Assembly: GCA_010093745.1 (NCBI GenBank)
Contig: MU005970.1
Span: forward strand, 6,138-70,137
Direction of reading: 5' to 3'
From: Piedraia hortae CBS 480.64
Lineage: Eukaryota
DNA: 64,000 nucleotides
Position numbers and translations under genes: made by a program. Of the stretch, positions 287 to 61,590 are shown piece after piece. Position 1 is the first letter of the stretch. Every line of letters starts with the position of its first letter. The notes beneath the pieces were generated by a model. It had not been told where the DNA came from and did not search any database. It saw nothing but the letters and a program-made list of their open reading frames with translations.

Positions 287-417
287 CACTTCCCCCCCCT
301 CCCTTGTTCCCTCAAAAAAAAAAGGTAGCATTAAAACTAATTATCCCTTTTCCCACACTGATCATCGTAGCAGTTTCTTCCCGTCCTATCTTACACCCTT
401 CTTCCATCCCTCTTTCA

Positions 418-444
418 CATCATCATCATCATCATCATCATCAT
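418..444. repeat. (CAT)9 microsatellite between convergent 3' ends
   Basis: Directly visible trinucleotide run. Confidence 0.9.
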
Positions 445-448
445 CCCT

Positions 449-990
449 TTATTTCTCTGCCTCCCCATGGACTACCCCTTCGTCATCCGTACCAACAGCC
501 TGGTACCCATGCACTTTCTTAAAGCCATCACTAATCTGCCGAGTATGAGCCCTGACCTTTTCTGCAGCAGACGACCTCCGCCTTTGCCGTGGTGCTGAGG
601 GCAAAGAGTTATCGCCAGCGAGAACGTGGACGAAGAAGGTTGATGGATCGCCTCGTTCGGCGAATTGGCCAGACGGAGAGGAGCGTAAGGGCTGCAAGCT
701 CCTTATCATTCGCTGCGCGTCTTGACGGGATTTTTCGCGGAGCCTGGTTTGTCTGGTTTTTTGGTTAGTGGTTGGGTTGGGTGGGTTGGGAGGGAGAGAG
801 ACGTACTGTTCAGGGGAGATGCCGGGAAGGAGGAGGTCGTGGCGGATGGGGTTTGTTGGGTTGCTCTGTTGACTGGTTAGTTTTGTTTGATCGGTCGGTT
901 TTTTGGGAGGCGTACAATTGTGAGCTCCCGCGTTGGTGGACCGGAATAGAGAGGAATGCAGCTACAGAAAAGGTTGCGGAACCAGGACAT
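449..990 (-). CDS. Small 3-exon hypothetical protein (~145 aa) with N-terminal Cys and a CRIB-like ISNPTN motif
   Basis: Exons 990-916, 865-807 and 752-449. Introns GTACGC..CTAAC..CAG (915-866) and GTACGT..CTAAC..CAG (806-753) join in frame: MSWFRNLFCSCIPLYSGPPTRELTISNPTNPIRHDLLLPGISPEQQTRLREKSRQDAQRMIRSL... Confidence 0.7.
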
Positions 991-1186
991 GCTCTTTTTT
1001 GGTTCCTTAGGGATGGGTGGTGGGTTCTAATAGTTCAGACGAGATCTGAGACTTGAAAATGAGACAGGGAAAAAGTGAAAGAGAGACAAGAAGTAAAAAA
1101 GAAAGATGGTCAGTCCTTACTGGTGGGAAAACATCCCGTAGGAAATCAAACCCAAGGTTGCTGCATAACTAAGCCTTGCATAGTTT

Positions 1187-2596
1187 CTATTCTGAAAGAA
1201 ATTTGACGTGATAACTCTTGAGGCGCGAAAACTGTTCGTAGCCGAATGAGGATAAAGTCTGCCCTTTGCCACTGTCTTTCCATCCCACCCATGCAAGGTC
1301 CGGGCTGGGGAAGTCGCATCGGTTGACAAAGACCGTACCGGCCTCGATCCTGTCCGCCAGTCGCTCACCACATTCTGTATCCTTTGTCCAGATTGATGCT
1401 GTGAGACCGAATGAAGAGTCGTTCATGAGTCGCTCCGCTTCATCGTCCCCAGACACCGCCATGATGGGTATCACCGGCCCAAATGTCTCGTCGCGCATCA
1501 CCGACATGTCGTGCGTCACATTCGTGAGAACCGTCGGAGCGACGTAGTTGCCGCCTGATGGCGGGGATGTGAATGTTTTGTTCGCGGGGGTCACGTCCTT
1601 GGCGCCTTTTGTCTTTGCTGCGGCCACTTGCTCTGCGATGCGTTCGGCCGCCGCTTTGCTTACGACGGGTCCGACGTTTGTGGACTTCTCGTTGGGGTCG
1701 CCGAGAGCATATCCCTCCAAGACCTTTTGCACGGCTTTGACAAAGTCGTCGTGGATCTCCTTGGCAACGTACACGCGCTCGACTGAGCAGCATGACTGAC
1801 CAGAGTTGAAGACTGCGCCGTCAACGATTTGATCAGCTGCCCAGGCTACATCGACGTCTGAACGCACGTAGGCGGGATCCTTCCCGCCGAGCTCGAGCCC
1901 AACACGGCAGTCTACGCGTCCGGCGGCGGCTTCTTGCACGGCTAAACCTCCTGCCACGGACCCCGTGAAGCACACGAGCTGGATTTCTGCTGATTGGATG
2001 AGTTTCTCGATCTTACCAAAGTTTCCGCAGTGAAAGTATTGGATAACGTTCTTGGGCAGCCCGGCCTCGTTGAAGATGCCATGGATCCGTTCCACGACTG
2101 TAGGCGTCTGAGGACTCGGCTTGAGAATCACACTGTTGCCGCTCAGCAGGGCGGGAATCAGACTATTGACGAGAATGAGATAGGGGTAGTTCCATGCAAA
2201 AAGTACCAGGACGGGTCCGAGGGGGACTTTACGAACGTATCGTTTGAATCCCTTTTGCGCCTCCCCTGGTGTGTCTCTTAGACACTCGTCGCTAATCTTG
2301 AGCATGTACTCTCCCCTCGCCACTGCTGTGGTGATTTCGGCAGCTGCTGCGCTGATGGGTCGCCCCATCTGCTCCGTCAGCTCCTTTGCGAGTTCATCTT
2401 TGCGGCTGGTGATTAATTCCAGCGCTTTCTTGACAATCTTCTGCCTGTCCGCTAGGGACGTCTGGCGGAAGCTGAGGAAGGCGGCTTGGGCCGTCTTTGG
2501 GATATGCTTCAAGGCTTCGTCTGAAGGCTCTTGACGTTCGTAAATCCCCTTGTTAGTTACGGGAGAGATTGTGGTTATTTTCCCTTGTTCGCCCAT
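1187..2596 (-). CDS. Aldehyde dehydrogenase family protein
   Basis: Motifs AWNYP, LKPS, FTGS, LELGGKDP, FNSGQSCCS (catalytic Cys) and ETFGPV; intronless 469 aa. Confidence 0.95.
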   Translation of the reverse strand: MGEQGKITTISPVTNKGIYERQEPSDEALKHIPKTAQAAFLSFRQTSLADRQKIVKKALELITSRKDELAKELTEQMGRPISAAAAEITTAVARGEYMLKISDECLRDTPGEAQKGFKRYVRKVPLGPVLVLFAWNYPYLILVNSLIPALLSGNSVILKPSPQTPTVVERIHGIFNEAGLPKNVIQYFHCGNFGKIEKLIQSAEIQLVCFTGSVAGGLAVQEAAAGRVDCRVGLELGGKDPAYVRSDVDVAWAADQIVDGAVFNSGQSCCSVERVYVAKEIHDDFVKAVQKVLEGYALGDPNEKSTNVGPVVSKAAAERIAEQVAAAKTKGAKDVTPANKTFTSPPSGGNYVAPTVLTNVTHDMSVMRDETFGPVIPIMAVSGDDEAERLMNDSSFGLTASIWTKDTECGERLADRIEAGTVFVNRCDFPSPDLAWVGWKDSGKGQTLSSFGYEQFSRLKSYHVKFLSE

Positions 2597-3055
2597 TGTT
2601 GATTGCTGTGTCTGGTGGGGAAAGCTTTTATCTCACCGCTAATAATGGCATCACTAGCGAACTATCTTGCATGATACACATCTTCATGTGAGCCGGGGAC
2701 CATCTTCCATCTTCATACTACTAGTACAAGATCATGCTAGGTCTATAGTCTAAGGATGAAACCCGCTTTGGGCATTTGTAGTGCGCCTTTTGAGCCAATA
2801 AAGGAGCTTCCAGACAAGGCGTCAAAGGGTCGGCATCTCGCAATTCCCCTTTTACCATATCATCTGTCACCACGTGTTTCTCACCTGTCAACATGAACCC
2901 TATGCACCTGTCACCTATTATTCACACCGATACAGCCTGCTCCGTATATATTAGATATACCTTAAGATATCCAAGTGATTCTGGCGAATGACGTAGGCGC
3001 GTCAAAGCTCTGAAGTCGCGACAAAAACCTCCGAGCCTTCCAACAAACGTTTCCT

Positions 3056-3061: not shown

Positions 3062-3091
<30 letters not shown>
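3062..3091. repeat. (CT)15 microsatellite in the 5' leader of the NADH dehydrogenase gene
   Basis: Directly visible, ending 10 nt upstream of the ATG. Confidence 0.9.
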
Positions 3092-3096
<5 letters not shown>

Positions 3097-3101: not shown

Positions 3102-5145
3102 ATGCTTGCTCTGCGCCATGGCGCACGGTGTCTGAGGCGACCTCACAATGTTGTTCTCACACCGTTAACGTTGTCCAGATTCACAAATCGCTCATTGGCG
3201 ACATCATCAAAGCAGATAAGCGCTCAGAAACTTATCTCGAATTCACGACAGCTACGCTGGGCTTCGACTACTGCTACCCCAAAGACAAAACGGTACAAAT
3301 CCATATTCACGCGTGTTCTTGCTTCGTTTGGCCTCTTTGTGCTCACATCTGGCGGTCTGGTGGTCGCATTCTTCCTCTATGATGCTTCCACGTACAGAGA
3401 AGACGGCCATGATGTGCAGATCCCAGTCTCTGCATACGCGCTTTCTCCACGAAGGGGTGGACCTGAGAACTTGCCCATTGCTGAGTACCTGGTTGATGAT
3501 GATGAGCCCCAGCTAAGGGACCAAAAACATAAGCCAAAGCTGGTGATTCTGGGAACAGGATGGGGCAGTGTAGCCATGTTGAAAACGTTGAACCCTGGCG
3601 ATTACCATGTTACAGTCGTCAGCCCCAGCAACCACTTCCTATTCACGCCTATGCTGCCAAGCGCGACAGTTGGGACGCTCGAGTTCCGCAGCCTGACGGA
3701 GCCCGTTAGACATATCATCAAGAAAATAAAAGGCCATTTCCTAAAAGCTGAGGCTGTGGATATTGACTTCAAAGAGAAGCTGCTCAAGGTGGAGGGCGAC
3801 GGCATCAATGGCGAAAAGCAGCAGTTCTACATTCCCTACGACAAGCTGGTCATTGGAGTAGGATCCATGACCAACCCACACGGCGTCAAGGGTTTGGAGA
3901 ACTGCCATTGCCTCAAAAGCATCAGTGACGCTCGTAAAATCCGCAATGCCGTAATCCAGAACCTGGAAGAGGCATGTCTACCCACCACCAGTGACGAGGA
4001 TAGGCGTAGACTTCTCTCGTTTGTCGTCTGCGGCGGCGGCCCTACTGGCGTCGAATTTGCCGCCGAGCTCTACGACATGTTGAGCGAAGATCTCAGCATG
4101 TTCTACCCACACATACTCGGCAACGAATTCGCCGTCAGCATTATTCAAAGCAGAGGCCACATCCTCAACACCTACGACCAAGCACTAAGCGAGTACGCCG
4201 AGGCGCGTTTCTCCCACGAGCACGTAGACGTCCACACCAACGCCCGCGTGCAAGAAGTCCTACCAGACCGCATCCGCTTCTCCCAAAAGACTGCCGACGG
4301 CAAAATCATCAACAAAGAACTCCCAATGGGCTTCTGCCTCTGGTCCACCGGCGTATCCCAAACGCCGTTTAGCCAAAAACTCGCCTCCAAACTCGGCGAG
4401 TCCCAAACCAACCGCCACGCCTTGGAAACCGACTCCCATCTACGCCTTGCCGGCGCACCTCTAGGCGACGTCTACGCCATTGGCGACTGCAGCACCGTGC
4501 AGAACAACATATCCGACCACATCGTATCATTCCTCCGAAGCCTCGCCTGGGAAAAAGGCCTGGACCCTTCCAAAATGCAAATCACATACCCCGAATGGCG
4601 CAAGGTAGCAAAATCCGTCCGTGGACGTTTTCCCCAAGCGTCAGAACACCTCCATCGCCTAGACTGGCTGTTTGAACAATACGACAAGGACAAGAGCGGA
4701 ACCCTCGATTTCGGCGAGCTCAGCGAACTTCTCAGACAAATCGACTCAAAACTGACCAGTCTCCCCGCTACCGCCCAGAGGGCAAACCAGCAGGGCATGT
4801 ATCTTGGAAAGAAATTCAATAGGCTCGCTTGCGCGGACCCGACTACGCTAGGGGAAGGCGATCCCGATGCGGCGGTGTACAAGGCGTTTGAGTACAAACA
4901 CGCGGGCAGTCTGGCGTATGTGGGCAATGCGGCGATTTTTGATATCAACGGGATGAACTTCAAAGGGGGGCTGTTGGCCGTGTACCTTTGGAGGAGCGTT
5001 TACTTTGCTCAATCTGTCAGTTTCAGAACTCGTGTTCTGCTCATGATGGATTGGACGAAACGGACGCTGTTTGGGAGAGGTATGTTCTTCTTATCTTTAA
5101 ACTGTATGTTTACTGATTACTGCTACAGATATGATGAATTACTAG
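3102..5145 (+). CDS. Mitochondrial type II (alternative, external) NAD(P)H dehydrogenase with EF-hand, NDE-1-like
   Basis: Arg-rich presequence, two Rossmann motifs (LVILGTGWG, VVCGGGPTGVE), EF-hand DKDKSGTLDFGE, ATAQRA. Intron 5080-5128 (GTATGT..CTGAT..CAG) gives the terminus LFGRDMMNY*. Confidence 0.93.
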
Positions 5146-5174: not shown

Positions 5175-6918
5175 CTACAGGATTCTATGAGGAGGAGGTT
5201 GAGGGGGAGCGTTTTCTTCTGGATCTCGCTCTTTCGCAACGCGATTCACCTCCTCCTGTCGTTCTTTCCTCTGTTTCGCTAGTAATGGCGAGACGCCGAT
5301 CAACTTCCCGTCTGGCAATGACGCACCAAGACCGTTCATCTTTGGGTCTGGGAACCCGAAATAGAACGGAACAGTTTGACCCGTTCGTCTCGCGCCTTGT
5401 TCGATCGTAGGCGGGTGAACCCACCACTGTTCCGTCCGCAGGGCCCCGTCCTCGCCCATTTCCTCGCGGTAATCCCCTTCTGTGCCCTTGAATGTCCGCG
5501 CCGTGAACCTCCGAGGGATGAGCTCGCTGCTGCCGCTACTTTGGGGCAACATCTTGGACACAGTCTCGGCAATGACCCACTGTGCCTTTTCGCCTGCGCG
5601 ACCGGGGACCTCGTCTGAGGAAATCTCAACGTAGCCGTCCGCGCTGGGGACAAAGTGTCGTGCAGGGAGGACTTCAATGTCGATTATGGGGAGGATGCGG
5701 TGGTAGATATCGTGGGTGTGGATCTCGCGCGTGATTTCCTCGTGGAGGATCTCGTGCGTTTGGGTTTCGATGGTGTGGTGTGTCACCGCCGGTGCCCAGC
5801 GTTCGTGAAGGGTGTAGGATTCGGTGTCGTGGGTTGGGATCATGTCCGAGCTTGTGTCTGCTGCGGCCATGTCTCTTTTGATGGACGGAGCGGGCCCTGC
5901 CAGGCTAGCTGGTTTCAGGGTTGGACTATCTTCGTAGGCTGGTGGCTGCGGTTCGGCGAATTTCAGCGTTGGACTGTCTTGCTGAAATTGGTTCTGTGCG
6001 GAAGTATTGAGAGCTGGGGCACTTTGCTGATATCGTGGAGCCTGGCTGGTCGCGACCTTGCCCCTTTCGCTGGCTCTAGGCATTGTCTTCAGCGGTGCGA
6101 CGTATTGCTGGCAGGATGCGTCCTGACCGGTTCCCTGGTTGAGTCCCTCACCGGTTCTCGACATTGCTCCCAGTGTTGAGCCGCCTGGCTGAGATGGGAC
6201 CTGATCGCGCGCCAAAGGGTTAGCTTCGCCAGCCTTGCATACGGTCGGCATTGAAAGGTTTTGGTTGTCCAATGTTTCGCGTCCAGCAGCACGCACAAAG
6301 GCCCGCTGTGACCCATCTGTCTGACGCCCTGCACCCTCCCGCTCGCTAATTTGTCCTACTCGTGGTGCCCGGTCAATCCTTTCATCGGAAGACACCTGGC
6401 GAGGCCCTGTAGCGTCTCGCGGAGGTGTCCCACCAACAATGGGCAGAGCCTGACCAACTGCTGGTGATGGCGCAGCCTGTCCCCCAGGAATTGAGGGCAA
6501 GGGCTTATCGAGACTGCTGCGAGGCGCATGTCGTTTTCCATTGTCCGCCACGCGCGATGCCTGTGTTACAGGCAAACCATGACCTGGCTTTGGAAACCGA
6601 CTGGCAGTCGATGGCTCGGCGTCCAAGTTGCGATCAGCCACGTCCTCGCTGTGAGGTAGATGGTCTACCGCGCTCCGCTTGAACGGCTGCAAATTTTCCG
6701 CATCATCTGTTACCCTTGTAGGACTTTGAGACGCGCGAGGGTCTGTTCGTTAGTAGGCCTCTTGGTAGCTCATTTGCGCGGTGAATACCTAAATGGAGGA
6801 ATTCTCGAAGCGACTTCTTGTGCGCATGATTGCTCGTTGTTTCATGATCAATTGCAGAAGTTTCGTCGTTCTTGTGGAGCAGACGGTGGATGCGCTCCCG
6901 CGTACTACTGCCTGTCAT
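5175..6918 (-). CDS. Hypothetical protein containing a fungal His-rich 'allergen'-type motif
   Basis: Exon 1 (6918-6789) and intron 6788-6743 (GTATTC..CTAAC..CAG) join the 505-aa ORF in frame. Motif WAPAVTHHTIETQTHEILHEEITREIHTHDIYHRILPIIDIEVLPARH. Confidence 0.75.
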
Positions 6919-6948
6919 TGTAGACTCCAGTGACAGCTACAATGGACA

Positions 6949-7439
6949 TTACGTCAAGGCTGATGGGCAGCCCGCGCGCCATGACGTCAGAGGCAACCAG
7001 AGTCTATTCCACGCTACAGACATCAACCTGATCTGCCAACTCTATTCATATTGATGATGGCTGGTCGATCATTCAACGGCCAAGTCGAACCAACCATTTG
7101 AATTCCGAGGCTGGGACCATGGCAACGCCAGTCACTCAATGCTGCGACCTTAACCATTCCGTGCTTCACCTGGTGACGTCAAGAAATGACTGTCATACGT
7201 GATAATTCGAGTCTCCGGATAGCCCATGAACAACCAGACTCCTTTGTGTGAACACTGTTCCTGATTCAGGAAGATTTTCTTTCTACGGGCCCTTGTTCAG
7301 GAGACAGCTGTTTCAATCATGACGTTTTGATCCACGTCAAACGTCCATGTAAGAACCTCATTCACACGCGTTTGGTGGCGGCGCAAAGCCTGTTGTAGCA
7401 GGCTCTACCATTGGCTGGGTAACAGTGATAATTACATCA
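6949..7439. promoter_or_regulatory. Cluster of CRE/ATF-like (bZIP) sites in a divergent promoter
   Basis: TTACGTCA 6949, TGACGTCA 6982, TGACGTCA 7174, TGACGT 7320, ACGTCA 7334, TTACATCA 7432. Confidence 0.55.
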
Positions 7440-7572: not shown

Positions 7573-9164
7573 ATGGAACACGCTAAAGCTGCCGTCAAGG
7601 ACTTCATGGGCAAAAGTGGCCACAATGACACCACTGTCCATGAGCGTGTCGCCCCGGCTGTTACGCACGAAACGATTGAGCGTCAGCAGCACGAGCAGGT
7701 GCAGACTGCGCTCGACAAAGAGATCCACCAGGACCACTACCACACGTCGGTCCAGCCCATCGTTGATAAGAATGTGCTCCCTGAGCAGCACCACTCCCGT
7801 GTAGCTCCGGTCGAGCACCGCTCTTTCGAGCACGACAACCCCGAGAAGGTCCAGCAGGCCTTGCAGGCTGAGCAGGCCAAGTTCCGTGACACTACTGAGC
7901 ACGTTCAAGGCCGCTCTACTACTTCGGCTGGCCCCACTCTTGCTGGGCAGCATACGCACCACCATGTGCATGAGACCATTCAGCCCGTTGTTAACAAGCG
8001 TAAGTTTGATGTGGTATTCTCTAAGCACGGCTGACTTTGCCAGAAACCATTGAGCCTCACGTCGTTCATACCACGGTCCCTGTTCACGAGGTGCACCACA
8101 ATGCTGCCCAGCACCATGCCACTTCTGCTCTCCCGGCTGTGAGCATGAGCGAATTCAAGCAGCAGGGCGGTGTCCTGCATGGCCGTGAGGAGCGCCAGGA
8201 TGGCTTCCAGGGCGAGCCCCGTGCCCTCAGTGGTGCTACCGCAGGTACTACTGGTACTACTGGCCTCCACGGCACTCATGGTACTCATGGCACTCATACT
8301 ACTCACGGCACTCACGGCACTCACGGCGCCGCAGGTGCTGGTGCTGCAGGTGCCGGTGCCACCGGTCTTGCGGGAGCTGCTGCATCGCACCACAACAAGA
8401 AGCACACCTCCGGCCGTCGTTCGAGCTCTAGCTCTTCGTCCAGCTCTGACGGCAAGGGTGGACGTGTCAAGCGCAGTGCCAAGAACAAGCTCGCTGGTGC
8501 TGCTACTGGCGCCGCTTGCTCTCGCGGTGTTCACGGCTCTCACACTGGAACTGGTGTTGACCCTGCCCTGGCCGGTACCACTGGTGCTGGCGTAGGCGCT
8601 GCTGGCGTGGCTGCTGGAACTCACGGCCATCACGGTACTCATGGATCTCACACTGGAGTTGGCTCTGGCGTGCCAGGAACGCACGGCTCGCACACTGGTA
8701 CCGGCGTTACGGGCTCTAACACTGGCTACGGCTCGACTAGCGGTGTCCCTGGACAGACTGGGACTGGCGTGACCGGCACTGCCGGCTCTAACACCGGCTA
8801 CGGCACGACCGGCTCCAACACCGGCTACGGCACGACCGGCTCTAACACTGGCTACGGCACGACCGGCTCCAACACTGGCTATGGTACGACCGGCACGCAT
8901 GGAACTGGCGTTACCGGCTCTGGCGTGCCTGGCACCCATGGCTCGCACACTGGAACAGGAGCTACTGGTTCTGGCTTGACTGGTTCCGGCGTTACCGGCA
9001 CTCATGGCTCGCACGTGGGCTCTGGTGCTACTGGTGCCGGTGTTGGAACCGCTGCCGGAACGGGCGTCGGCTCAACCGCAACCCACCAGAAGCCGTCGCT
9101 CTTGGACAAGCTCAACCCGCTGAAGGATGCGGACGGTGATGGCCAGAAGGGATTCATGAAATGA
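7573..9164 (+). CDS. His-rich 'allergen'-domain protein with a Gly/Thr/His-rich hydrophilin/dehydrin-like tail
   Basis: N-terminal APAVTHETI..EIHQDHYHTSVQP..HHHVHETIQPVV domain. Intron 8000-8043 (GTAAGT..CTGAC..CAG). C-terminus KPSLLDKLNPLKDADGDGQKGFMK. Confidence 0.85.
8784..8891 (+). repeat. Coding tandem repeat, 4 x 27 nt (GSNTGYGTT)
   Basis: ggctc(t/c)aacac(c/t)ggcta(c/t)gg(c/t)acgacc repeated four times. Confidence 0.9.
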
Positions 9165-9307
9165 ACGACTCGTGATGAATGATAGAACATGGCAATGAGG
9201 TTTGTGTTTGACGTAGCAGTACTAGCAGATACCCTACGATTGTACTGCCCTTTTTATTCCTTGTAACCCTTTCGAGTCTTGTTCTTTACCCTCGCATCCC
9301 TTTGTCC

Positions 9308-10684
9308 TCATGCCTCGTAGCCTTCTGTCTTCATGTCTCTTAGCCCGAGGTCCTCATCTTCCTGCTGCGTACGCTCGTAATCTTCTACCGTTATCTGCGG
9401 ATCCTCCTTGTCATCTGTGAGCTTTTGCACGTATGAGCCTGCTAGTGGATCTTGGAGAGTCAATGTGAACTGGCGTTTGCCTGCCACAGCTTCGTCTAGG
9501 CCCGCGAAGAAATCATCCCACGATTTTTTTGTCTCGGTCAACATGGAGTCTGTTGTGCTTTTATCACCGCCAAAAGCCTGATTTGAGAGATCCTCCCGCA
9601 TCTGAGTCAGGATACCCTCGACGGTGGTGAATCTCCCGCCCATCGTCCCAGGCTGGACATGCAGCCGCAGCTCCGGACAAATAAGTGTTGCGCTTTCTCC
9701 CTTGAGAATATCCCTGTCAAGGTCCTCCGGCTTCTCCACCCGCAGGCGTATCCTCTTTCCCTTCTCCGGCACCTCCCCACCCGTCTTGACCTCATTAGAC
9801 TTATACCCACAATGCTCGCACACTGAGGACATCAACACCACCTGCTTAAAGTGAGGAATATTGACCATCTTCATATTCGTCTCGCACGGTCTCGTACACG
9901 CCGAGCATGAAGCCGGGAACGTATAGACATGATTCTCCACAATATCCTCCTCGCCCTTGTCATCCCCCCCAACAGTCCTCATCTCCCGCTGCGGCATTTC
10001 CGGAACCATGTCATGCGCCTTATACTCCCCCCCACCCGCAAAATTCCGTTCCTCCCCCTCTCCAATCCCCAACAACCTATTCTGCTCCTTGGAGCGGGTA
10101 TACTCCTTCTGACTAAGTCTCCCCTCCCCCTCACCCACTCTCGGCTCAATCCACGAGTTTCCAGCGGGATCATCAACTGAAACCGTAAACGGACACCCCG
10201 TCCCCTCGGGCTGCACCAACCCGCGAAGCCTTTCGATCACTCCCGCAACCTTCTCCGCAACCTCAGGTAAACTCTCCCTCCTCTGTTCCTGAAACATCTC
10301 CAAATCATCCGCTACACTCCTCACCATCCCCTCCACATTCGTATACCTCCCTTTCCCATTCGACGGGGCAGTTAGATCTAATTCCTCGATCCGGAACGTC
10401 GCGGTCTCGGTCTTGATCACGCTGCGTTGGAGATCGCTCGCGTCTTCGACTTTGAGGGTTACGGTTTTTCCCAACGGAGAGATTTTTCCGGTCGATTGGA
10501 CTTCGTTGTCGCTATGGCCGCATGCGGGACAGCTGAAGGAGGAAATCACGCAGCTCCCGAAGTATGGGATGCTAGTTAGGAGGAGCTTCGTCACGCCGGA
10601 TTCGGAGCCGCAGGAGAGGCAGAGGGATTGGATCTCGGAGATAGGTTGTCCGTCCGTGTGCGCTTGTGTGTCGGTGGTGGCCAT
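9308..10684 (-). CDS. ZPR1: Zinc finger protein ZPR1
   Basis: Two ZPR1 modules: CLSC..LLLTSIPYF..CPAC and CSAC..IPHFKQVVLMSSVCEHCGYKSNEVKTGG; also DDPAGNSW and GRFTTVEG. Confidence 0.95.
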   Translation of the reverse strand: MATTDTQAHTDGQPISEIQSLCLSCGSESGVTKLLLTSIPYFGSCVISSFSCPACGHSDNEVQSTGKISPLGKTVTLKVEDASDLQRSVIKTETATFRIEELDLTAPSNGKGRYTNVEGMVRSVADDLEMFQEQRRESLPEVAEKVAGVIERLRGLVQPEGTGCPFTVSVDDPAGNSWIEPRVGEGEGRLSQKEYTRSKEQNRLLGIGEGEERNFAGGGEYKAHDMVPEMPQREMRTVGGDDKGEEDIVENHVYTFPASCSACTRPCETNMKMVNIPHFKQVVLMSSVCEHCGYKSNEVKTGGEVPEKGKRIRLRVEKPEDLDRDILKGESATLICPELRLHVQPGTMGGRFTTVEGILTQMREDLSNQAFGGDKSTTDSMLTETKKSWDDFFAGLDEAVAGKRQFTLTLQDPLAGSYVQKLTDDKEDPQITVEDYERTQQEDEDLGLRDMKTEGYEA

Positions 10685-10958
10685 TTTTGAGAAAGGTGGA
10701 TGTTGGTTTTTTGTCGTTTTGGTTTTGTCTTTGGGGTTCTTCTTGAAGATTCGTACTTTTTTGGACTTTTTGGGGTGATGTCACTGTGGAAGCGTCGAGA
10801 AGATGTGGGGTATGGGTAGTGGGGTCTGTGTCGAAAAGTCAGCCGCGAGATGTCATTTGAGCTTGAGGTTTGAATTGTTTGATTGCCAGGCTATCCAGCT
10901 GCGAGAGTTGCAGATCAACTTGGCTACACGCTGGACATGCAAAAAAAAAAAAAACAAA

Positions 10959-20570: not shown

Positions 20571-20578
20571 AGTAGACA

Positions 20579-50990: not shown

Positions 50991-52925
50991 ATGGCAGAGG
51001 AAGGAATCGACCCTCGCTTCGAGGCCTTCACCAAAGAACCACAGCATATTATCCCTAGTCGGAAGAAAGCCCGTCCCGTCGTTGACAAGCGGTTCGCTAA
51101 AGAGCTTAAGAAAACCGCCCTAAATAAAGCGTCTATCGATCGCTACGGAAGGAAAATCTCCTCGAATAAAGGCAAGGACCGCATTAAGGAATTGTATAGT
51201 TTTGAGGATAGCGATGAGGAGGAGGAGCAGCGCAAGGATTTTGCGCGCGAGGGGGGGTTCTCGGCTTCGGAAACCGAGGATGATTCTTCGAGTGAAGAGG
51301 AGAGTGAACTTGATGAGGAGTTGTTAGGGCAGGAGACTGCGGGGGCGGGGGGGGAAGAAGAGGAGGATATCCCCTCCGGAGAGGTTACGAAGCGAATTGC
51401 AGTTGTGAACCTCGATTGGGATAATATTCGCGCGGTGGATTTGTTGGCTGTGGCGCAGAGTTTTGTGCCTGATCAGGGGTCGACGATTGAGGAGGTGGCA
51501 ATCTATCCGAGTGAATTTGGAAAGAAGAGGCTTGAGAAGGAAGATGTTGAGGGACCGCCGAAGGATATATTCGCCGGTAGGCAGATTGGTGTTGATGATG
51601 TTGATGATGTTGATGATGTTGATGATGATGATGAGGAGGAGGATGAGGAGGAGGATGAAGAGAACATTAGGAAACGTATTATTGCAGAACAGGCAAATGG
51701 TGGGGAAGAGTTTGATACGAAAAAGTTGCGGCAATATCAGCTCGAGAGGCTGAGGTATTACTATGCTGTAATTACCTGTGACTCGATCGATACGGCGAAG
51801 ATGCTGTATGAGAATATGGATGGGAGGGAGTACCTTGCTACCGCCAACTCGCTCGACCTCCGCTTCGTGCCCGATGACACGTCCTTTGAGGATGAGATCC
51901 CGAGGGAGGTTGCCCGTGAGTTGCCGTCGGGATATAAGCCCAACGAGTTCCGAACGGAAGCCCTCACACACTCAAAGGTGAGACTCACTTGGGATGACGA
52001 CGATACCACCCGCAAGGAAGTGCAGAAGCGTGCTTTCTCACGCGCCGAAATTGACGAAAACGATCTCAAAGCATATCTGGGTAGTGATAGCGAGGATGAA
52101 GAGGAGGAAACGGACAAGAAAAAGGCCGAAAGGTCAAAGTTGCGTGGCTTGTTGGGCCTCCCGGACCAGCCTGAAAAACCGGGGAAAGACGAGCCGGTGG
52201 GTGATATGCAGATCACCTTCACTTCTGGATTGAGCGGCGGCAAGGGGGACTATGAAGTGTTCGAAAACCTACCACAAGATGAAGAGAGCACAAGAGCTCG
52301 ATATATCAAGAAAGAGCGGGAACGAAAACAGCGGCGTAAGGAAAGGATGAAAGCTCTAAAAGGGCAGGAATCAAATGCTGAAAAGGAAGAAGATGCTGGC
52401 TTCGACGACCCGTTCTTCGATGACCCTGCCGCAGCAGCTATGGAGAAGAAAAAGGCGAAGAAGGCTGAAAAGCGAGCCAAGAAGAAAGCCGAGGAGGCCC
52501 AGGCAGAGGAAGACAAAGAGAAAACGAAGGAGCTGGAGCTGCTTATGATGGACCCCGCTGACGACGACGAAGAAATCCGTCACTTCGATCTGCGTGAAAT
52601 CAAAGCGGCAGAAAAGGCGAAGAAAAAGAAGAGAAGGAGAAAAGGCAAGGGCCAGGAAGATGCCGAAGTTGAAGAGGTTGAGTATGTCCCCGATTCCAGA
52701 TTTGCTAAAGTCTTGGATGATCCCAAATACGCAATTGACCCAACGAATCCGCACTATGTGGACACGCCAGGCATGCGTGCGCTGCTCAAAGAAGCGCGCA
52801 AGAAAAGGTCCCGCATCCCAGACGAAGGGGATGTTCAGCCCCAAAAAAAGGTCAAGGCCCCAGCAGAAGAGGATGTGCAAAGCATTGTGTCTCGGCTGAA
52901 GAAGAAGAGTAAGAAAAGTAATTAG
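50991..52925 (+). CDS. ESF1: Pre-rRNA-processing protein Esf1
   Basis: DPRF, IDRYGR, RIAVVNLDWDNIRAVDL, YPSEFGK, LRQYQLERLRYYYAV, DLRFVPDD, NUC153-like DSRF..YAIDPTNP. Confidence 0.94.
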   Translation: MAEEGIDPRFEAFTKEPQHIIPSRKKARPVVDKRFAKELKKTALNKASIDRYGRKISSNKGKDRIKELYSFEDSDEEEEQRKDFAREGGFSASETEDDSSSEEESELDEELLGQETAGAGGEEEEDIPSGEVTKRIAVVNLDWDNIRAVDLLAVAQSFVPDQGSTIEEVAIYPSEFGKKRLEKEDVEGPPKDIFAGRQIGVDDVDDVDDVDDDDEEEDEEEDEENIRKRIIAEQANGGEEFDTKKLRQYQLERLRYYYAVITCDSIDTAKMLYENMDGREYLATANSLDLRFVPDDTSFEDEIPREVARELPSGYKPNEFRTEALTHSKVRLTWDDDDTTRKEVQKRAFSRAEIDENDLKAYLGSDSEDEEEETDKKKAERSKLRGLLGLPDQPEKPGKDEPVGDMQITFTSGLSGGKGDYEVFENLPQDEESTRARYIKKERERKQRRKERMKALKGQESNAEKEEDAGFDDPFFDDPAAAAMEKKKAKKAEKRAKKKAEEAQAEEDKEKTKELELLMMDPADDDEEIRHFDLREIKAAEKAKKKKRRRKGKGQEDAEVEEVEYVPDSRFAKVLDDPKYAIDPTNPHYVDTPGMRALLKEARKKRSRIPDEGDVQPQKKVKAPAEEDVQSIVSRLKKKSKKSN

Positions 52926-53631: not shown

Positions 53632-56073
53632 ATGAGCAACCGAGCCAGCCTCTCCAGCAGACGCTCGACCATCTCCAGACGTCTCTCCGCCGCCAGTCGC
53701 GATGTTTCCGCCTCCGCCGCCGACGACACGGCCGAGGAGCTGGCCGAGATCAAGCGTTATGAAGACTTTACAACCATCGACTGGGTGCAGGATGCAACGA
53801 GGGAGAACAGGCGGCGGGCGGCAAGGCGTAGGGAGCGCGCTGGGTTCTATGACCAAGACGGACGTTTGGGATGGCGGCGGAAGGCGTGGGAAGCCTACGA
53901 CGCCGGCCAGGCTTGGATCGTCGTCACGATTATTGGCGTTGCCGTCGGGCTGAATGCCGCTTTCCTGAATATCGTTACCGAATGGCTCAGCGACATCAAG
54001 CTCGGCCACTGTACCACGGCCTTCTATCTCAACGAAAGCTTCTGCTGCTGGGGCGCCGAGGACGGCTGTCCCGAATGGCACCGCTGGAGCTCTGTTGGGC
54101 TGATTAATTACTTTCTGTACATTGTAGCAGCTGGACTGCTGTCATTCTGCTCCGCGCGGCTGGTCAAATCGTATGCGCCGTACGCGGCTGGCAGTGGAAT
54201 CAGCGAAATCAAATGCATTACGGCTGGCTTCGTCATGAAGGGCTTTCTCGGCTTTTGGACGCTGCTGATCAAGACATTGGCCATGCCACTGAGCATTGCA
54301 TCAGGGCTCTCGGTCGGCAAAGAAGGCCCTTCGGTGCACTACGCCGTCTGTACGGGGAATGTCATCAGCCGCATGTTCGACAAATACCGGCGCAATGCAG
54401 CCAAGACGCGGGAGATCCTGTCCGCATGTGCGGCAGCTGGCGTGGCCGTGGCCTTTGGGTCTCCCATTGGCGGTGTGCTCTTCAGTTTAGAGGAGATGAG
54501 TAACTATTTCCCTCTCAAAACCATGTGGAGGTCGTATTATTGCTGCCTGGTGGCGACAGCCGTCTTGGCCGCCATGAATCCCTTTCGAACTGGCCAGTTG
54601 GTCATGTTCACCGTCAAATACGACCGTACCTGGCACTTCTTCGAGCTGCCATTTTACATTCTGCTCGGCGTCTTTGGCGGCCTATACGGCGCCTTTGTTA
54701 TGAAGTGGAATCTTCGGGTGCAGGACTTTCGAAAGCGCTATCTTAGCAAGTATCCCATTGTGGAGAGTGTGATCCTCGCCTGCCTGACCGCCGCCGTCTG
54801 CTACCCCAACAAGTTTCTGCGCATTGACATGACGGAAAGCATGGAGATCCTATTCCGCGAGTGCGAGGGCGGACACAACTATGACAATCTCTGTGAGAAG
54901 CCTGGACGGTGGTGGCTTGTTGTCTTGCTTCTCATCGCAACCGCCATCCGTACCTTTCTCGTCATCATTTCATACGGCTGCAAAGTGCCAGCGGGGATAT
55001 TCGTCCCGTCTATGGCCATTGGCGCTCTTTTCGGTCGCACCGTGGGAGTTTTGGTCCAGGTACTACACGAAGCCTTTCCCGACGCAGCTTACTTCTCCGC
55101 CTGCGAACCAGACTTACCCTGCATCACCCCTGGCACGTACGCCTTCCTTGGCGCTGGCGCCGCCCTCAGCGGCATCATGCACATCACCATCTCCGTGGTG
55201 GTCATCATGTTCGAGCTGACGGGCGCATTAACTTATATTCTGCCTACCATGATCGTTGTAGGGGCTACAAAAGCCGTGGCCGACTGGTGCGGCAAGGGCG
55301 GCATCGCCGATCGTATGATCTGGTTTAACGGCTTCCCCTTCCTCGATAACAAGGAGGAACACATATTCGGCATTGCCGTTCAAGAAATCATGACCTCAGA
55401 TCCGACCACTCTCCCCGTTACAGGCGCCTCCTTTAAACAGATCGACCTTCTCCTCACACAAACCAAATATCAAGGCTTCCCCATTGTCGACTCTGACGGC
55501 ATCCTCAAAGGTTACATTGGAAGAGTTGAGCTCCGCTATGCTCGCGAGCGCTTCAGCAGCGAAGCCACGGAGTCGTCTACATGCTCCTTTGTCGTGCCCG
55601 AAGGGCCTTCTTCTGCAGAGCCTTTCCCTGCAGGCAATCTCCCAACAAGCCCTCCACTCGACAAATCCCTTCCGAGCCCTGTCCCAGACGAAGCAACCCT
55701 GGATCTAAGTGCATTCATCGACCCCACACCCCTGAGCGTGCATCCTCAACTCCCTCTCGAAACCGTGATGGAACTCTTCAAAAAGCTCGGCCCGCGCGTT
55801 ATCCTCGTCGAGAAGCAAGGCATCCTCGTTGGCCTCGTCACGGTAAAAGACTGTCTCAAATACCAGTTCCACGTCGAGAAACACGTTACGCATCAAAACG
55901 TCTCGCTCAAACAGGAGCAGGAACGCCTTTGGATCTGGATAAGAGAGTCTATCGCCAGGGCTCTGGGGACACGCGTAGGACCGCTGGCGGGGAGGTTCTA
56001 TGCACCTCTCAGCGTGGATGATTATGAAACTGAGGGGTTGGTAGAGTTGGAGGATCGGAGGAGGGTTCTTTGA
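53632..56073 (+). CDS. CLC-family chloride channel / Cl-/H+ antiporter (Gef1-like)
   Basis: GSGISE, GKEGP, FGSPIGGVLFSLEE, GIFVP, FELTG, two C-terminal CBS domains; intronless 813 aa. Confidence 0.95.
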   Translation: MSNRASLSSRRSTISRRLSAASRDVSASAADDTAEELAEIKRYEDFTTIDWVQDATRENRRRAARRRERAGFYDQDGRLGWRRKAWEAYDAGQAWIVVTIIGVAVGLNAAFLNIVTEWLSDIKLGHCTTAFYLNESFCCWGAEDGCPEWHRWSSVGLINYFLYIVAAGLLSFCSARLVKSYAPYAAGSGISEIKCITAGFVMKGFLGFWTLLIKTLAMPLSIASGLSVGKEGPSVHYAVCTGNVISRMFDKYRRNAAKTREILSACAAAGVAVAFGSPIGGVLFSLEEMSNYFPLKTMWRSYYCCLVATAVLAAMNPFRTGQLVMFTVKYDRTWHFFELPFYILLGVFGGLYGAFVMKWNLRVQDFRKRYLSKYPIVESVILACLTAAVCYPNKFLRIDMTESMEILFRECEGGHNYDNLCEKPGRWWLVVLLLIATAIRTFLVIISYGCKVPAGIFVPSMAIGALFGRTVGVLVQVLHEAFPDAAYFSACEPDLPCITPGTYAFLGAGAALSGIMHITISVVVIMFELTGALTYILPTMIVVGATKAVADWCGKGGIADRMIWFNGFPFLDNKEEHIFGIAVQEIMTSDPTTLPVTGASFKQIDLLLTQTKYQGFPIVDSDGILKGYIGRVELRYARERFSSEATESSTCSFVVPEGPSSAEPFPAGNLPTSPPLDKSLPSPVPDEATLDLSAFIDPTPLSVHPQLPLETVMELFKKLGPRVILVEKQGILVGLVTVKDCLKYQFHVEKHVTHQNVSLKQEQERLWIWIRESIARALGTRVGPLAGRFYAPLSVDDYETEGLVELEDRRRVL

Positions 56074-57569
56074 TGGACTTATGCTGGAGAATGGGTGGAG
56101 TTGGAGGGTTGTTTGATGGAATTGATCATTTGTATATGTATGTTCATTTGGGGTGGAGATATGTACAGCTACAGGAAAAGTAGACGGGTGTATCATGGAC
56201 AAGGTGAAAGGATGACGGCATTCCACCTGTACGTGTGGCTCAAATTCTGGTGACGATTGGGTTTGCGTCAAACCCACACGTCAATTTTCCACAATTCCCC
56301 ACGACTGAAAATTCAGCAACCACAACAATATTACTGCAACACTCTATAAAATGCTCCGATAAACGCTCCGGTGCACTTGATTTTTGGACCGAGGCCTGCC
56401 ATCGACAATGGCCTCAGGAACCACCAATCGCCCCTTCGTCATGCAGGCTCAGCAATATTGAGCTCGTAATACCCTGCCGTGAGGATCGACAAAACACCCA
56501 CATTCTGCTTTGGATGCATCCTTGAACCGACTTCGAGGATACCAAGGGCTAGTCGACCGTACGTTGGTTGAGTATTTGAGCCTTTGGGGACCATATTTTC
56601 TATATCATCCCCGGAGGAGAGAGGCCCTTTATCATCAAATCTCCCAAGTCACCCAAGACCGCCTACGTTCAAGACTTGATACCCATCATTTTAACTGATC
56701 GGCTTGCAAAGCACGGTCTCAAAATTTTAAGGGAAGTGACAACTTCAAAATTTGGGACATCCAGATCGAAGCATCGTTATCCTCTCAACTTTTCCTCTAC
56801 AAAAGTTCCATCGATGTTGGCTCGCAAGTTGCCCATGGAACTCGGCAGGTCGGATGCAAGGGGGCAAGCAGGCTGACGAAAGGATTGAAATAACATCTCA
56901 GTTCTTCCTCGATTTTCTTGCGCTTCGTGGGCTACGCGGAGAATCGATTACAGACTCGCAATACTACAGCCCAGCATCTACTGGAGAGGAAAGCCCATTC
57001 TTCTTCGACAAGTTTACATTCGGGCTTGTGAATTGGGCGGCGCCGTTCGCAGCCAAATAAAACGGCAGTCTTGGATATTCGATCGCGGGCAAGACACTCT
57101 GCGTGAATTCTGCAGCTTCGCGGGAGGAGTGGTTCATTGTTCTGGAGCCGGGTGTTTCAGATGTTCTTGAGATCCGCTCACTCGAAGATGCTCGGGCGGT
57201 TAGGACGAAGGAGAGTGCAGCCAGTGCGCTCCCAGATTTCGAAGTTCATTACAGCATCATGTCCCAAAGAGCACTCAATTGACGAATGTGAAGACCGTTC
57301 TGACATCGAGGAGTGGTTGTCCAAAGACCCCAAAGAATGCCGAGATTATCAGCTTATGCGTCAGCTCTATGGCCCTTACCTTCCTACGCAAACGAAGTCC
57401 TCAATTGGCACCAGATGGCCAAGAAAATGGAGCTTTTCAGCACCAACAAGCTGTTCATCGCCATTGGCTGGATTACCTGCAAGACAAAGCTGCGGCTCGG
57501 TGCCGGGAGATGCAGGGGGCGTGGGCAACTCTGAGTGGTCAATCCGCAAAGTCCGAGCGCGTCCCACAT

Positions 57570-59150
57570 CATCTACACAATAACATCATCTACCGTCACA
57601 TGTTTGCGTTTCCAAGCTAATTCGCCTAGAAAAATCCTTCGTCTGCTGTGCCTGAGCCCTTGAGCATACACGAGGTGGTCAGAGATCTGGAGGCGAAGGC
57701 CTGTACCAAGCAGGTATTGATTGCACTGAGCTGGATAGCCATCAGTTCTAACTGCTCGCGTGCAAGAAATGAAGATATGAGGATCCAAGGGCGAGGAGAA
57801 ATCCGCGACCGGCTGCAAGGGGATGCACTAGGTGAGCCGTAAAAGCTCAAGAATGGAAGTCTTTTGAAAGATCCCTAGAAGCTCCTCAATCGCCCTCGTT
57901 ACATGAGAGAGCTTGCGAATAGAAGGAATCAGACTTTCAGACGACCTTTGGGAAGCGAGAAGAATTGTGGGGAAGATCTGTCGTGCAGTTAACATGCGGT
58001 GACACGGTGCGGAGCAAAACCGGGGGACTTGCCCTTTATGGCTCATATGTAGCTGTCATACACTGTTAACATCATGTCTACCTCTTGACGTGACGAGCAG
58101 GTTTTTGACGTGGCGGGCTTGAGATGGCATGGACCCCGCTTCACGTCATCGTCATCTTGAATTTCCGCGGTGTCAATCTCCCTCATATCGGATTGAATAC
58201 CCCCTTTGGTGTTATGGTATGCGTGCATGTCAAAAAGCTCATCCAGCGTGAGCCGCTCATCGACCCCAGCGGAGTACAGTGCAGAATCTCGCATGGACGG
58301 TCCTTGTGTGGATCGAATCCTAAGAGGTGAAACAGGCTTGACAGGGACTTTTTGTAGCCTTGTTCTCCAAACTTAGCTAGTCGCGTGATTTCTTGCCTCT
58401 TTTGAGCCGGCCACATATCCATCTTATCTCCGATATCGTTCGTGTCTCTGATTATCATCAGACATACATGACAGTTCCAGATAGATCTCCGCTAATGTGA
58501 CTGAGTGTCCGACGCAGATGATGCATGTGGCTCTCCGTCTGGGATCGAAGGCCAATGTACCCTTCTGTGCACGTGAGACGTCCTCCTTGATTGCGTGGAG
58601 CATCATCTCGCTATTCAACTTGGGGCCTGTCGAAACGGAGTGATGAGCAGGCTGATGGAAGTTCGCCTGATTTATCCATTGTCAATTTTACAAGAGGGAA
58701 GTTCAGTTACAGACATTTGACTTTTGCGAGACCTCCCCGGTAATTTCATGATGTATCCCTCGTGGGAGCTGTAGCGGTTTCCTTTTACAGCACTCATACC
58801 GTCGCGGGACGAGTCCTGTATCTCGGGTACTGGGGAAATTGACGGACTCTACAGTTGGTTTTGCTGCTCACGATAACTAGCCAACGAAGACACGACCCTT
58901 TGGTTACCATTGACAATTCTTCGGCCATTCAAAAGGAATTCCCCATATCATGGACGGTTTAACCAATTCATCAAGATCTGTCAAGTGTAAACAAAGCATC
59001 CCTGTTACATTGAACTCCTTTGTTGCAACCGCATTCAAGCGAGAACAAATCTCTTGTAGAAAGCTTTGTTCACCATTTGTTACATGCATCCGGACGATGA
59101 AGCTTTCTACCAGCGTATGCACCCTGTATGATGAATCGCCCACCACGTGC
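57570..59150 (-). mobile_element. Highly decayed DNA-transposon relic, CACTA/EnSpm-like transposase type
   Basis: Collinear broken fragments RDGMSAVKGNRYSSH.., HSVSTGPKLNSEMMLHAIKEDVSRAQKGTLAFD.. and GFDPHKDRPCEILHCTPLG. They resemble the recalled fungal motif series DDTSGN..WNKH / HFLSTSN..LE / GLDPHxDTPVEILHTxLLG. Many stops and frameshifts; boundaries approximate. Confidence 0.5.
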
Positions 59151-59380
59151 TACTGCCCGGCGTCACATTCCTTGCTAGTAGCGAACAAATTTTGCTATTA
59201 CACAGTCTTCATATCCCCTTGGCAGAATTCTGCTGCGACAACTATTTTAACCACATTGACCTGTACTCGACCCCAGGTGAAGAAAATTAACACCACACTC
59301 CACGTAGATATACCTCAAGGAACAATCTTCCTTTCTCCTCCCTACACATACCACAATTCCAACCCACAGTCATAATAATC

Positions 59381-60226
59381 ATGCATTTCCAAATCTTCGC
59401 AACCCTGAAGGCCACCATCCTACTGATTCTCCACAAAATATGGCGCAGCCCGGTGTTCCGCCACACTCTTGGCGGGAAACAATCTTCTCCAATCAACAAC
59501 CCTATCACCGAATGGCGAAGCAGCACCGAGGGCTCCAGGGCCGGCTTTGTAGCGTCGTTAGACTACCCAATACCCCCTCCAAGCTCGACACACGACTCTA
59601 CGACCACTCAAAGACCCTCCCCCATCCTCGATCACACAGCCCTAATCACGTACGAATTCTTCCAACCAACCGACAACGCCGCGCTAAACATTAATGACCT
59701 CTTCAGTACCATCATCCCCATCCTTCAAGTCCTCGCAATCGCAATCTTCGTCGCCGATGTTCTTACCAAATGTTTCGGTCTGAAGCCGCGGGCCAAAAAG
59801 CCATCCAAGAAATCTTTTGAGAGCCAACGAACAGAAAAGCGCCTAAAACCAAAACACCACGGCAACCACAGCCTCGAATCGCGCGTTTATGCCCTCTCGC
59901 GCCGAAATGCGAAGCTCGCCTTGTTGCTGAAGCAGGAAAGGCAGCGTAATGTTGCTCTCCGCGCAGAATTCAGTCATCTGTCGCCCAAGTGGAAGAAGGC
60001 TGCCGCGCGTATGAATGAGCATTCTGCATTGCGAGATAGGAAAAGGGATGATCTCTTTAGGATGGTGGACAGGTTTCAGCAGGTGGTTGGGAAGTTGCGT
60101 GAGGCGTTGGGTGAGGTTGTGGACGAGGAGAATGAGGAGGACGGGAAGGTGGTGAGGGAGGAGAAGAAGGAGGTACAGGAGGGAGATGGATATACAAAAA
60201 GCGATGAAGGCGAAGGTAAAGATTGA
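59381..60226 (+). CDS. Hypothetical protein with one TM segment and a basic coiled-coil / acidic C-terminus
   Basis: 281-aa ORF with hydrophobic IIPILQVLAIAIFVADVL and a heptad-like LESRVYALSRRNAKL..LRAEF region. Confidence 0.55.
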   Translation: MHFQIFATLKATILLILHKIWRSPVFRHTLGGKQSSPINNPITEWRSSTEGSRAGFVASLDYPIPPPSSTHDSTTTQRPSPILDHTALITYEFFQPTDNAALNINDLFSTIIPILQVLAIAIFVADVLTKCFGLKPRAKKPSKKSFESQRTEKRLKPKHHGNHSLESRVYALSRRNAKLALLLKQERQRNVALRAEFSHLSPKWKKAAARMNEHSALRDRKRDDLFRMVDRFQQVVGKLREALGEVVDEENEEDGKVVREEKKEVQEGDGYTKSDEGEGKD

Positions 60227-61590
60227 GGGATAAAGAAGAGGCTTGTTGAGTGAGGTGATAGAGGAAATGGATTGTGGTATCTTCGAGGTATTCTATGTGC
60301 GTTTTCGTATCATCAACTTTCATCGGGCCAGGAAGTGGTAGTGGTCATGACGGCGGATTTAACGTTACCTAGCGTTAGTACAAGCTAAGATAGATAATGG
60401 GCTCTCAGCAATGTGTGTGTAGTCCAATATGGGCGAGTAAGGAATTTGGGGTTGTGGTTGAGTATCCATCTGTGGGCCTTTCTAACGACAATCATGCGGA
60501 GCAATTCGGGGTTTAGCCCACACAGTCAGCTGTCACATGTCATCTATCCAGATTAACACTACATAAGCTCAAACGACGTCCATTGCACAATTATCTAGAC
60601 GGAACGGGCGGGACGGTTGAGATGGAGGCCGCACAACGTTGCGGAACCCCATGACCTTCGGTTGAACAATGGTCTCCCGAAAGGTTCACATCAAGGCGAC
60701 TGTGGATATGTTCAGCCGTTTTGCGGTTTGCTCTGACCTGACCTGTCCTGAGTTGACTCTCCCTGAGACCATAGATTTACATCTCCCCAGAGAAATGCCG
60801 GATGTGTAATGAAAGAAAAGCACTGGAGTTTGAAGTTCAATCACTCGTGTTGATTTGATATGAGATCCGAACCACAACTGCTTCAGTTGCTTACACACCC
60901 TGAGAGTGGGAGCCATGCCAATAACCAACATCGACATTGAATCCAGATGTTCGAGCCGCTCCTGGCTTTTACATGCCTGTTTGGAAATTGCATAGTCGTT
61001 CCTCACGTCAAGGGCATTTTTTAATTATATGTGCCGCTAGAATTGTCGCATATATCTGAAAAGGAGTGGTAGGATTGGAATAACTAAAATTGCCGTGGTG
61101 AAGGATGGCTATCGGCCCTTGAATGTTACCACAAGTTTCATCTGAACATCCAGCGATTACTTTGCCGCATACAATTCAGGGGTTTTCGGAAGTGAAGATC
61201 CGGGCTCATAACGGTCGGAAGGGGGAGGTGATCTACTCACACATCTCTGATGTAGCGAAATGTGAATCAGTCAAATGGTGTTTGTGATTTTCTGACGATG
61301 GAAAAAGGGAAGAGAGGATCAGACCCTGATTGTTAAAGCTGTCACACGTTCCGCTACAACCAGGAGCGCATTCGCAGAGATGACATGATGTTACGTGATC
61401 TTACCACAAGAGAAACGTCGTCATTGAGGCTACGTCAACAGGCCGAATGCTACAGTGTATGAACAATAACTGGTACAGTACATGTCTTGAGCCATGGTGC
61501 AATGCTTCGCAAGAGAGTAGCTTACTTGAGCCAAGATTGATGTACAAAATATGTACCAAACTTTTCTGCAGAGGCACTACACGCAATCTC

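Follow-up and report, generated by a model that had tools for sequence, protein, structure and literature searches.

The 64,000-nucleotide (nt) window analyzed here, positions 6138-70137 of contig MU005970.1 of Piedraia hortae CBS 480.64, a fungus with a compact genome (assembly of 16.9 Mb in 132 contigs), contains a series of abrupt changes from C/A-rich to G/T-rich sequence. These flips are local mirror-image dipoles and not the fork-polarity jumps of stable replication origins. A typical dipole measures ~1-1.5 kb, its C arm being immediately followed by the G arm, and about one in five predicted genes (63/313) carries one, usually close to its 3' end. The base shifts point to mutation on single-stranded DNA as the probable cause. 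Tentatively, and with less than even confidence, we favor the view that the dipoles have built up under a focal, strand-asymmetric mutation pressure arising where sense and antisense R-loops would expose DNA near gene ends. For statistical power the window was combined with 190 kb adjoining it on the same contig and 200 kb from each of two other contigs, giving 654 kb, in which a self-trained gene finder returned 313 complete predicted genes of at least 300 nt. The gene models are predictions; many of their introns are matched, in 24001-44000 of the window only, by spliced contigs of a sequencing run (X2) that we took by guess to be RNA and that give no strand, start or level.

All twelve flip points listed in the initial annotation have a negative-to-positive jump in GC (guanine-cytosine) skew within 150 nt. 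Measured as the difference between 400-nt arms, the jumps range from 0.47 to 1.06 and lie at 588 (0.85), 4772 (0.47), 10423 (0.84), 24989 (0.73), 32346 (0.67), 33793 (0.95), 37696 (0.87), 43509 (0.52), 48445 (1.06), 51202 (0.56), 55806 (0.62) and 59962 (0.89). Further weaker flips, absent from that list, were found at 5645, 20331 and 36922. The largest jump in 20 order-3 Markov simulations of the window was 0.42, so none reached 0.5, a size attained by 13 jumps in the real sequence. The AT (adenine-thymine) skew over all sites drops across ten of the twelve points, hardly changes at 43509 and does not drop at 55806, and its flip is clear at synonymous sites. At synonymous sites the flip at 51202 has one side only (-0.06 to the left, +0.30 to the right). 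In the 654 kb, there are 72 strong two-sided C-to-G flips (jump of at least 0.6) versus 34 of opposite sign, and isolated G-to-C flips are rare, most being the gap between two C-to-G flips. Shuffling of synonymous codons reduces the 72 flips to 25.6 when done within genes and to 15.6 when done within each of the three regions; the corresponding values for the window are 9 flips, 3.2 and 2.5. Flips are thus commoner than in codon-shuffled controls, and protein content is rejected as their cause. It had also been claimed that the skew overrides synonymous codon choice, citing a codon run in the GILT gene that we located at 48575-48601; the skew is indeed strongest at synonymous and intron sites.

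The shape of the dipoles was measured at held-out sites: centers were called without four-fold sites and introns (70 calls), and the skew was then read at those sites on the outward strand, the one that reads 5' to 3' away from the center. At four-fold sites the outward GC skew is ~+0.6 at 100-400 nt and ~+0.1 by 1 kb, with introns behaving alike and being skewed as much as exons. The outward AT skew is ~-0.3, and the four-fold AT skew passes from ~+0.3 to -0.4 across the centers. The switch is sharp, going from -0.22 to +0.19 inside ~150 nt at the held-out synonymous sites of strong dipoles. Once each codon family's baseline is subtracted, the G/T excess in the outward direction is +0.21 to +0.28 over the first 400 nt and still +0.12 at 700-800 nt. 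The two arms are nearly equal in the frame of transcription (upstream +0.22, +0.26 and +0.22; downstream +0.23, +0.27 and +0.21). In short genes the dipole spans the whole gene. Beyond 1 kb the baseline-corrected outward skew is 0.00 +/- 0.01 on those sides, 49 of 144, where the next 6 kb are free of other flips.

This last result bears on the proposal, made in the initial annotation, that stable and efficient origins spaced about every 5 kb produce the flips through leading/lagging asymmetry. Such asymmetry would last to the terminus, and since the skew is gone by 1 kb, with no saw-tooth, the stable-origin model fails; we give it hardly any weight. The centers are also anchored to gene ends, which the model does not foresee. 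In its favor is the sign of the jumps, which is that of bacterial and human origins. This polarity had been called established for origins in general, but it is reversed in the yeasts S. cerevisiae and K. lactis, whose leading strands are rich in C and A (Marsolier-Kergoat 2012, PMC3459929; here and below, statements on published work refer to the accessible parts of each article). The alternative put forward in the same annotation, a site-specific strand-asymmetric mutation process within coding regions, fits our data well.

The dipoles are tied to genes and, within genes, to the 3' end. Centers fall inside genes in 64 of 72 cases (63% of the sequence is genic; p=8e-7), at a median distance of 358 nt from the stop codon. 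Of the 22 centers in genes of 1.8 kb or more, 17 lie 100-650 nt before the stop (4.3 expected) and one lies equally far after the start. Genes with a convergent neighbor carry dipoles more often (43/172) than tandem genes (19/139; p=0.015). The skew dies out within ~200 nt outside start or stop codons, and at 400-800 nt from the center it is 0.20 within the host gene (49 sides) versus 0.085 in neighbor genes (28 sides; p=1.6e-4). This weaker yet positive skew in the neighbors means that a dipole is mostly, not strictly, bound to its transcription unit. The polarity had been noted to be the same in plus- and minus-strand genes, and transcription had been discounted for that reason together with protein content. 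The observation itself stands (31 hosts on the plus strand, 33 on the minus strand), and so does the exclusion of protein content. A C-then-G dipole is, however, its own reverse complement; orientation independence is therefore automatic, and equal numbers of hosts on both strands cannot exclude transcription; the centers are in fact tied to the 3' ends of genes.

Most fungi have genes with, on average, a C-biased 5' end, a G-biased 3' end and a flat AT skew, from a cause that was left unsettled (McLean & Tirosh 2011, PMC3315797). This gradient alone, with its C-rich and G-rich regimes meeting abruptly in short genes, might give rise to flips. The mean sense profile of the 313 predicted genes, in which C-richness over most of the gene gives way to G-richness at its end, resembles the largest group of that study, the orthologues of the ZPR1 gene follow the gradient on average, and the span of dipoles in short genes also agrees with it. 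The long genes do not. Their 5' end is flat, with a third-position skew of -0.04 in the first 300 nt (61 genes), and the C arm immediately precedes the G arm and is coupled to it. With the stop codon as an unbiased anchor, C-richness 500-900 nt before the stop is present only in G-ended genes (-0.12, n=30, versus -0.005, n=60), and the coupling of the C arm to the 3' G arm has a rho of -0.36 (p=5e-4; 90 genes of at least 1.5 kb). Both gene ends show almost no skew away from dipoles (+0.004, -0.013, +0.045 and +0.013), in a test that is partly circular. Given as well the AT-skew flip at synonymous sites, where the published AT skew is flat, the gradient alone is an improbable explanation.

The composition of the arms indicates which changes would be involved. 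At four-fold sites the outward strand has A 0.13, C 0.13, G 0.50 and T 0.25, against a baseline, on the sense strand far from flips, of A 0.19, C 0.33, G 0.26 and T 0.22. The two-fold fraction C/(C+T) is 0.16-0.30 when the sense strand is outward and 0.77-0.87 when it is inward (7/7 families), and G/(A+G) is 0.78-0.89 versus 0.21-0.47 (5/5 families); on the outward strand every family has moved from C toward T and from A toward G. C is low there in all neighbor contexts (0.10-0.18), so no TpC, CpG or CpA motif is distinguished, and a context-specific deaminase or repeat-induced point mutation was rejected for this reason. An equilibrium model with transitions only misses the purine excess for all nine of nine baselines. 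A fit with C>G added has three parameters for three free frequencies, its solution is not unique and T>G was not tried, so it shows only the need for an extra transversion toward G. Damage to single-stranded DNA typically takes the form of C>T, A>G and C>G (the last by uracil removal with Rev1-type bypass). If these changes occur on the outward strand, the exposed strand would have its 5' end at the center, and two geometries match: divergent transcription with R-loops, or an opening origin bubble. Loss of repair genes does not appear to be the cause, as all families searched for are encoded; domain matches were found for RNase H, RNase HII, two uracil-DNA glycosylases, four Y-family polymerases and a Spo11-type domain. 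No polymorphism spectrum could be read, since runs X1 and X2 have no alternative letters over 24001-44000.

The Spo11-type domain would permit meiotic break hotspots, in which case the islands would record resection or repair synthesis around Spo11 breaks. The reach of 0.5-1 kb is on the scale of resection, C>G and A>G are prominent in the flanks of human hotspots (Hinch et al. 2023, PMC7615360), and four-fold GC is raised in dipoles (0.65-0.67 versus 0.59 elsewhere), a rise that biased conversion would give and that A>G and C>G account for as well. The sign is wrong: resection exposes the forward strand to the left of a break, which gives G/T on the left and C/A on the right (PMC7615360). A break placed between two dipoles would need partners, and only 30 of 72 dipoles have one within 1.6 kb; the profile also has no reversed lobe. 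We regard this origin as quite improbable, somewhat more so than the gradient alone.

The pressure reaches the proteins. In outward arms Gly, Glu and Val roughly double in frequency, and Pro, His, Thr and Ser fall to about half. Compared with 39 orthologues, the G arm of ZPR1 has 43 substitutions, of which 26 go toward G-rich codons and 12 in the other direction, with a sum of +20.7 where the orthologue maximum is +6.3, and its C arm has 23 substitutions toward C and 9 away (35 in all). This replacement of conserved residues along the direction of the skew looks, from sequence comparison, more like a mutation load than a benefit.

Positions of dipoles are lineage- and locus-specific. The closest relatives of the ZPR1 of the window are Teratosphaeriaceae and other Dothideomycetes (52-60% identity). 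The conservation in orthologues that had been suggested as a check was not found: the 5' flip of ZPR1 is present in 0 of 64 non-redundant orthologous metagenome loci (80 fetched), of which 12 have a 3' jump of at least 0.3. Over their 507 kb these 64 loci contain 19 flips from C to G and 22 from G to C, a density of C-to-G flips about one third of that in Piedraia hortae. A paralogue of GILT (L020:4223-5005), ~228 kb away on the same contig, with ~70% DNA identity and one intron at a similar place, has no called dipole and only a mildly G-rich 3' end. Strong C-to-G flips (jump 0.70-1.12) were seen in the metagenomic fungal loci L084, L093, L065, L089 and L134, so the trait is patchy across ascomycetes.

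These comparisons also weigh on the idea that selection acts on the transcript, through pairing of a C/A-rich with a G/U-rich segment or through control of elongation or termination. The skew lies mostly within transcribed DNA and is anchored at the 3' end, and the mean folding z over 13 strong centers, relative to block shuffles, is -0.72 (one of the top 14 centers was skipped for N bases). That value barely beats the shuffles, with 2 of 13 centers near z -2. Introns are as skewed as exons, replacements of conserved residues follow the skew, and positions are retained neither in orthologues nor in the GILT paralogue. Transcript selection is accordingly very unlikely.

The mechanism that we tentatively prefer starts from a fixed point, usually 250-600 nt before the stop, from which the outward strand would repeatedly become single-stranded for ~500-900 nt in both directions. 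The exposed strand would become G/T-rich, and its partner C/A-rich, through C>T, A>G and, presumably, C>G. A sense polymerase slowed in the terminal zone may form R-loops, leaving the coding strand exposed on the downstream side of the center, and antisense transcription starting at the center, at the upstream edge of the sense R-loops, may expose the opposite strand upstream. In mammals, terminal GC skew occurs with R-loops at the 3' ends of closely packed genes (Ginno et al. 2013, PMC3787257) and R-loops act as antisense promoters (Tan-Wong et al. 2019, PMC6868509). A G-rich non-template strand could promote further R-loops, and such feedback would account for a few extreme genes while the rest are flat. 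Terminal-zone transcription is the most likely source of the strand exposure, and the least certain step.

Several results weigh against R-loops at gene ends. Antisense transcription, if much weaker than sense transcription, would not be expected to give arms so nearly equal. Six of 72 centers lie more than 250 nt from any predicted coding sequence of at least 300 nt, 12 of the 64 genic centers are more than 700 nt from the stop, and the skew crosses gene borders, being positive in 19 of 28 neighbor sides (p=0.004). Ordinary divergent promoters have no outward G/T skew (0.004 +/- 0.011, 57 genes) despite their divergent polymerases. Two-fold codon bias, used as a proxy for expression, does not differ (0.574 in 20 genes versus 0.591 in 193 genes, p=0.51). 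Dipoles are present in MLH1, GEN1 and MCM10 and absent from Hsp70, chaperonin and Ras-family genes, for which we assume expression levels from general knowledge. Gene class is uninformative, with a Pfam match in the largest exon for 44 of 63 dipole genes and for 44 of 63 length-matched controls.

Some of these results suit another possibility, that the islands are fossil footprints of initiation bubbles opening in gene bodies near 3' ends. Lagging-strand templates would be single-stranded for a few hundred bases at intragenic start sites, while these fire or shortly afterwards, and dense, stochastic firing would erase long-range skew. The geometry matches, with the 5' end of the exposed strand facing the center, and mirror-equal arms, a sharp switch, partial spill into neighbor genes and the missing link to expression proxies would all be natural; one site per 5-9 kb would not be an impossible density, and human origins are reported to show local mutational footprints and skew jumps. 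There is, however, no residual skew at 1-3 kb. The skew is attenuated at gene borders, the 3' anchoring is left unexplained, and spacing between centers is irregular (0.55-69 kb). Yeast origins prefer intergenic DNA, and here the centers are depleted in non-genic DNA (6 of 72, 15 expected, p=0.004). No AT-rich dip was found at the centers and no convincing motif: the top 5- and 6-mers (GCGCG, TTAAAC and others) are weak, are expected at a C-rich/G-rich junction and carry no correction for multiple testing. With the reversed polarity of yeast origins (PMC3459929) added, we consider initiation bubbles unlikely, though the strongest competitor of R-loops at gene ends.

The strongest dipole in the window (47906-49340, center ~48444) covers the GILT gene (48026-48766, plus strand). 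Ten N bases at 48288-48297, within a predicted GILT intron, are an assembly gap in its left arm. Three dipoles are close to stop codons of long plus-strand genes: a weaker one (4089-5100, center ~4772) ~370 nt before the stop of an NDE-type NADH dehydrogenase (3102-5145), with its right end taken from the profile and merging with the one-sided flip at 5645; one (31713-33219, center ~32304) 210 nt before the stop of a sulfite reductase gene (27865-32515), with a G/T arm that extends ~700 nt beyond the stop; and one (54927-56264, center 55806-55912) 160-270 nt before the stop of a CLC channel gene (53632-56073). On the minus strand, dipoles are found over a cyclin gene (24402-25502; dipole 24347-25676, center ~24972), over an RsfS-domain (ATP25-like) gene (33446-34306; dipole 33299-34385, center ~33792) that is convergent with the sulfite reductase gene, and in ZPR1 (9308-10684; dipole 9228-10884, center ~10363), at an atypical 5' position 320 nt after the start. 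Small genes are covered by three: a 3-exon minus-strand gene at 449-990 whose largest exon has no Pfam match (dipole 46-1126, center ~587), a 2-exon minus-strand gene at 37511-37895 (37321-38135, center ~37674; the G arm reaches the 3' end of a Clr2 gene) and a minus-strand gene at 43281-43733, labeled GMF in the initial annotation (weaker dipole 43252-43900, center ~43509, right end taken from the profile). A plus-strand cyclophilin gene at 20079-20570 has a weak dipole (19947-20775, center ~20331) that is absent from the earlier list. An orphan open reading frame (ORF) at 59381-60226 on the plus strand carries the dipole at 58866-60475 (center ~59919). The one-sided flip at ~51202 (50397-52496) lies 210 nt into ESF1 (50991-52925, plus strand), beside a divergent POP5 on the minus strand, with synonymous sites G/T-rich on the right side only.

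Other features of the window were noted. Two dipoles meet in the 930-nt gap (32515-33446) that separates the sulfite reductase gene from the convergent ATP25-like gene. The X2 contig is continuous over this gap, which is compatible with overlapping 3' untranslated regions (UTRs), and the contig need not be a single transcript. At 26349-26575 an X2 contig lacks 225 nt, bounded by GT..AG, from predicted exon 2 of an EF-hand mitochondrial carrier gene, an intron or alternative splice missed by the gene model. A spliced minus-strand intron at 41029-41081, in a 2-kb region upstream of Clr2 without a long ORF, suggests a long 5' UTR or a non-coding transcript. The region 11345-13940 is gene-poor and lower in GC, with short minus-strand ORFs without Pfam match and no C-to-G flip; ORF 11791-12120 may resemble a decayed hAT-type transposase. 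The divergent genes 5175-6982 and 7573-9164 have 'PAVTH-TIE' type motifs in common; the latter ends in Gly/Thr/His repeats (TGSNTGYGT), and ORF 5175-6251 has no Pfam match. A (CT)n tract (3062-3093) lies immediately 5' of the NADH dehydrogenase ATG and a (CAT)n tract (416-444) just past the stop of the small gene 449-990.

No new gene or element is revealed by this work, and the gene-level average was already published (PMC3315797). The cause of fungal intragenic GC skew has nevertheless been open since 2011, and the 63 genes with dipoles now give exact coordinates to set against maps of R-loops, antisense starts, origins and breaks. A pressure strong enough for directional replacement of conserved amino acids, as in ZPR1, bears on codon-usage and phylogenetic work in this long-branch lineage. 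If initiation bubbles were the cause, the sequence by itself would allow 2,000-3,000 origins to be mapped in a filamentous fungus, and averaging such focal footprints would yield the fungal 5'C/3'G gene skew.

We found no description of local mirror dipoles in fungal genes in a literature search that did not cover subscription journals. The islands are a sharper, extreme form of the published fungal 5'C/3'G pattern, now focal. As in McLean & Tirosh (PMC3315797), the sense strand is C-biased upstream and G-biased near the stop in some genes only, and four-fold sites, UTRs and amino-acid choice are affected; the available text describes a 5' ramp, a constant middle and a 3' ramp, whereas here there are sharp mirror dipoles, a flat 5' end in long genes, an AT skew that flips too and a four-fold skew that reaches +/-0.6. 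The C over G skew at transcription start sites of plants and fungi (Fujimori et al. 2005, PMC555766) also makes the coding strand C-rich near starts, with a G-to-C transversion suggested, but it peaks 50-100 nt upstream of the ATG and, as far as the accessible text goes, has no AT skew, while the dipoles are mostly near stops and have an AT component. Skew jumps at origins (PMC3459929; Polak & Arndt 2009, PMC2817419; Murat et al. 2022, PMC9645720) share the upward C-to-G and A-to-T point jump in bacteria and human; they differ in long-range persistence, which is missing here, in our centers being in genes, and in the opposite sign in yeast. Meiotic hotspot mutagenesis (PMC7615360) is likewise focal and of kilobase scale, with C>N and A>N on the exposed strand, and has the opposite polarity. 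Terminal R-loop skew (PMC3787257, PMC6868509) shares a G-rich non-template strand at the 3' ends of closely packed genes; it is mammalian, the accessible parts of these articles describe no mirror C arm, and the R-loops of Piedraia hortae are putative.

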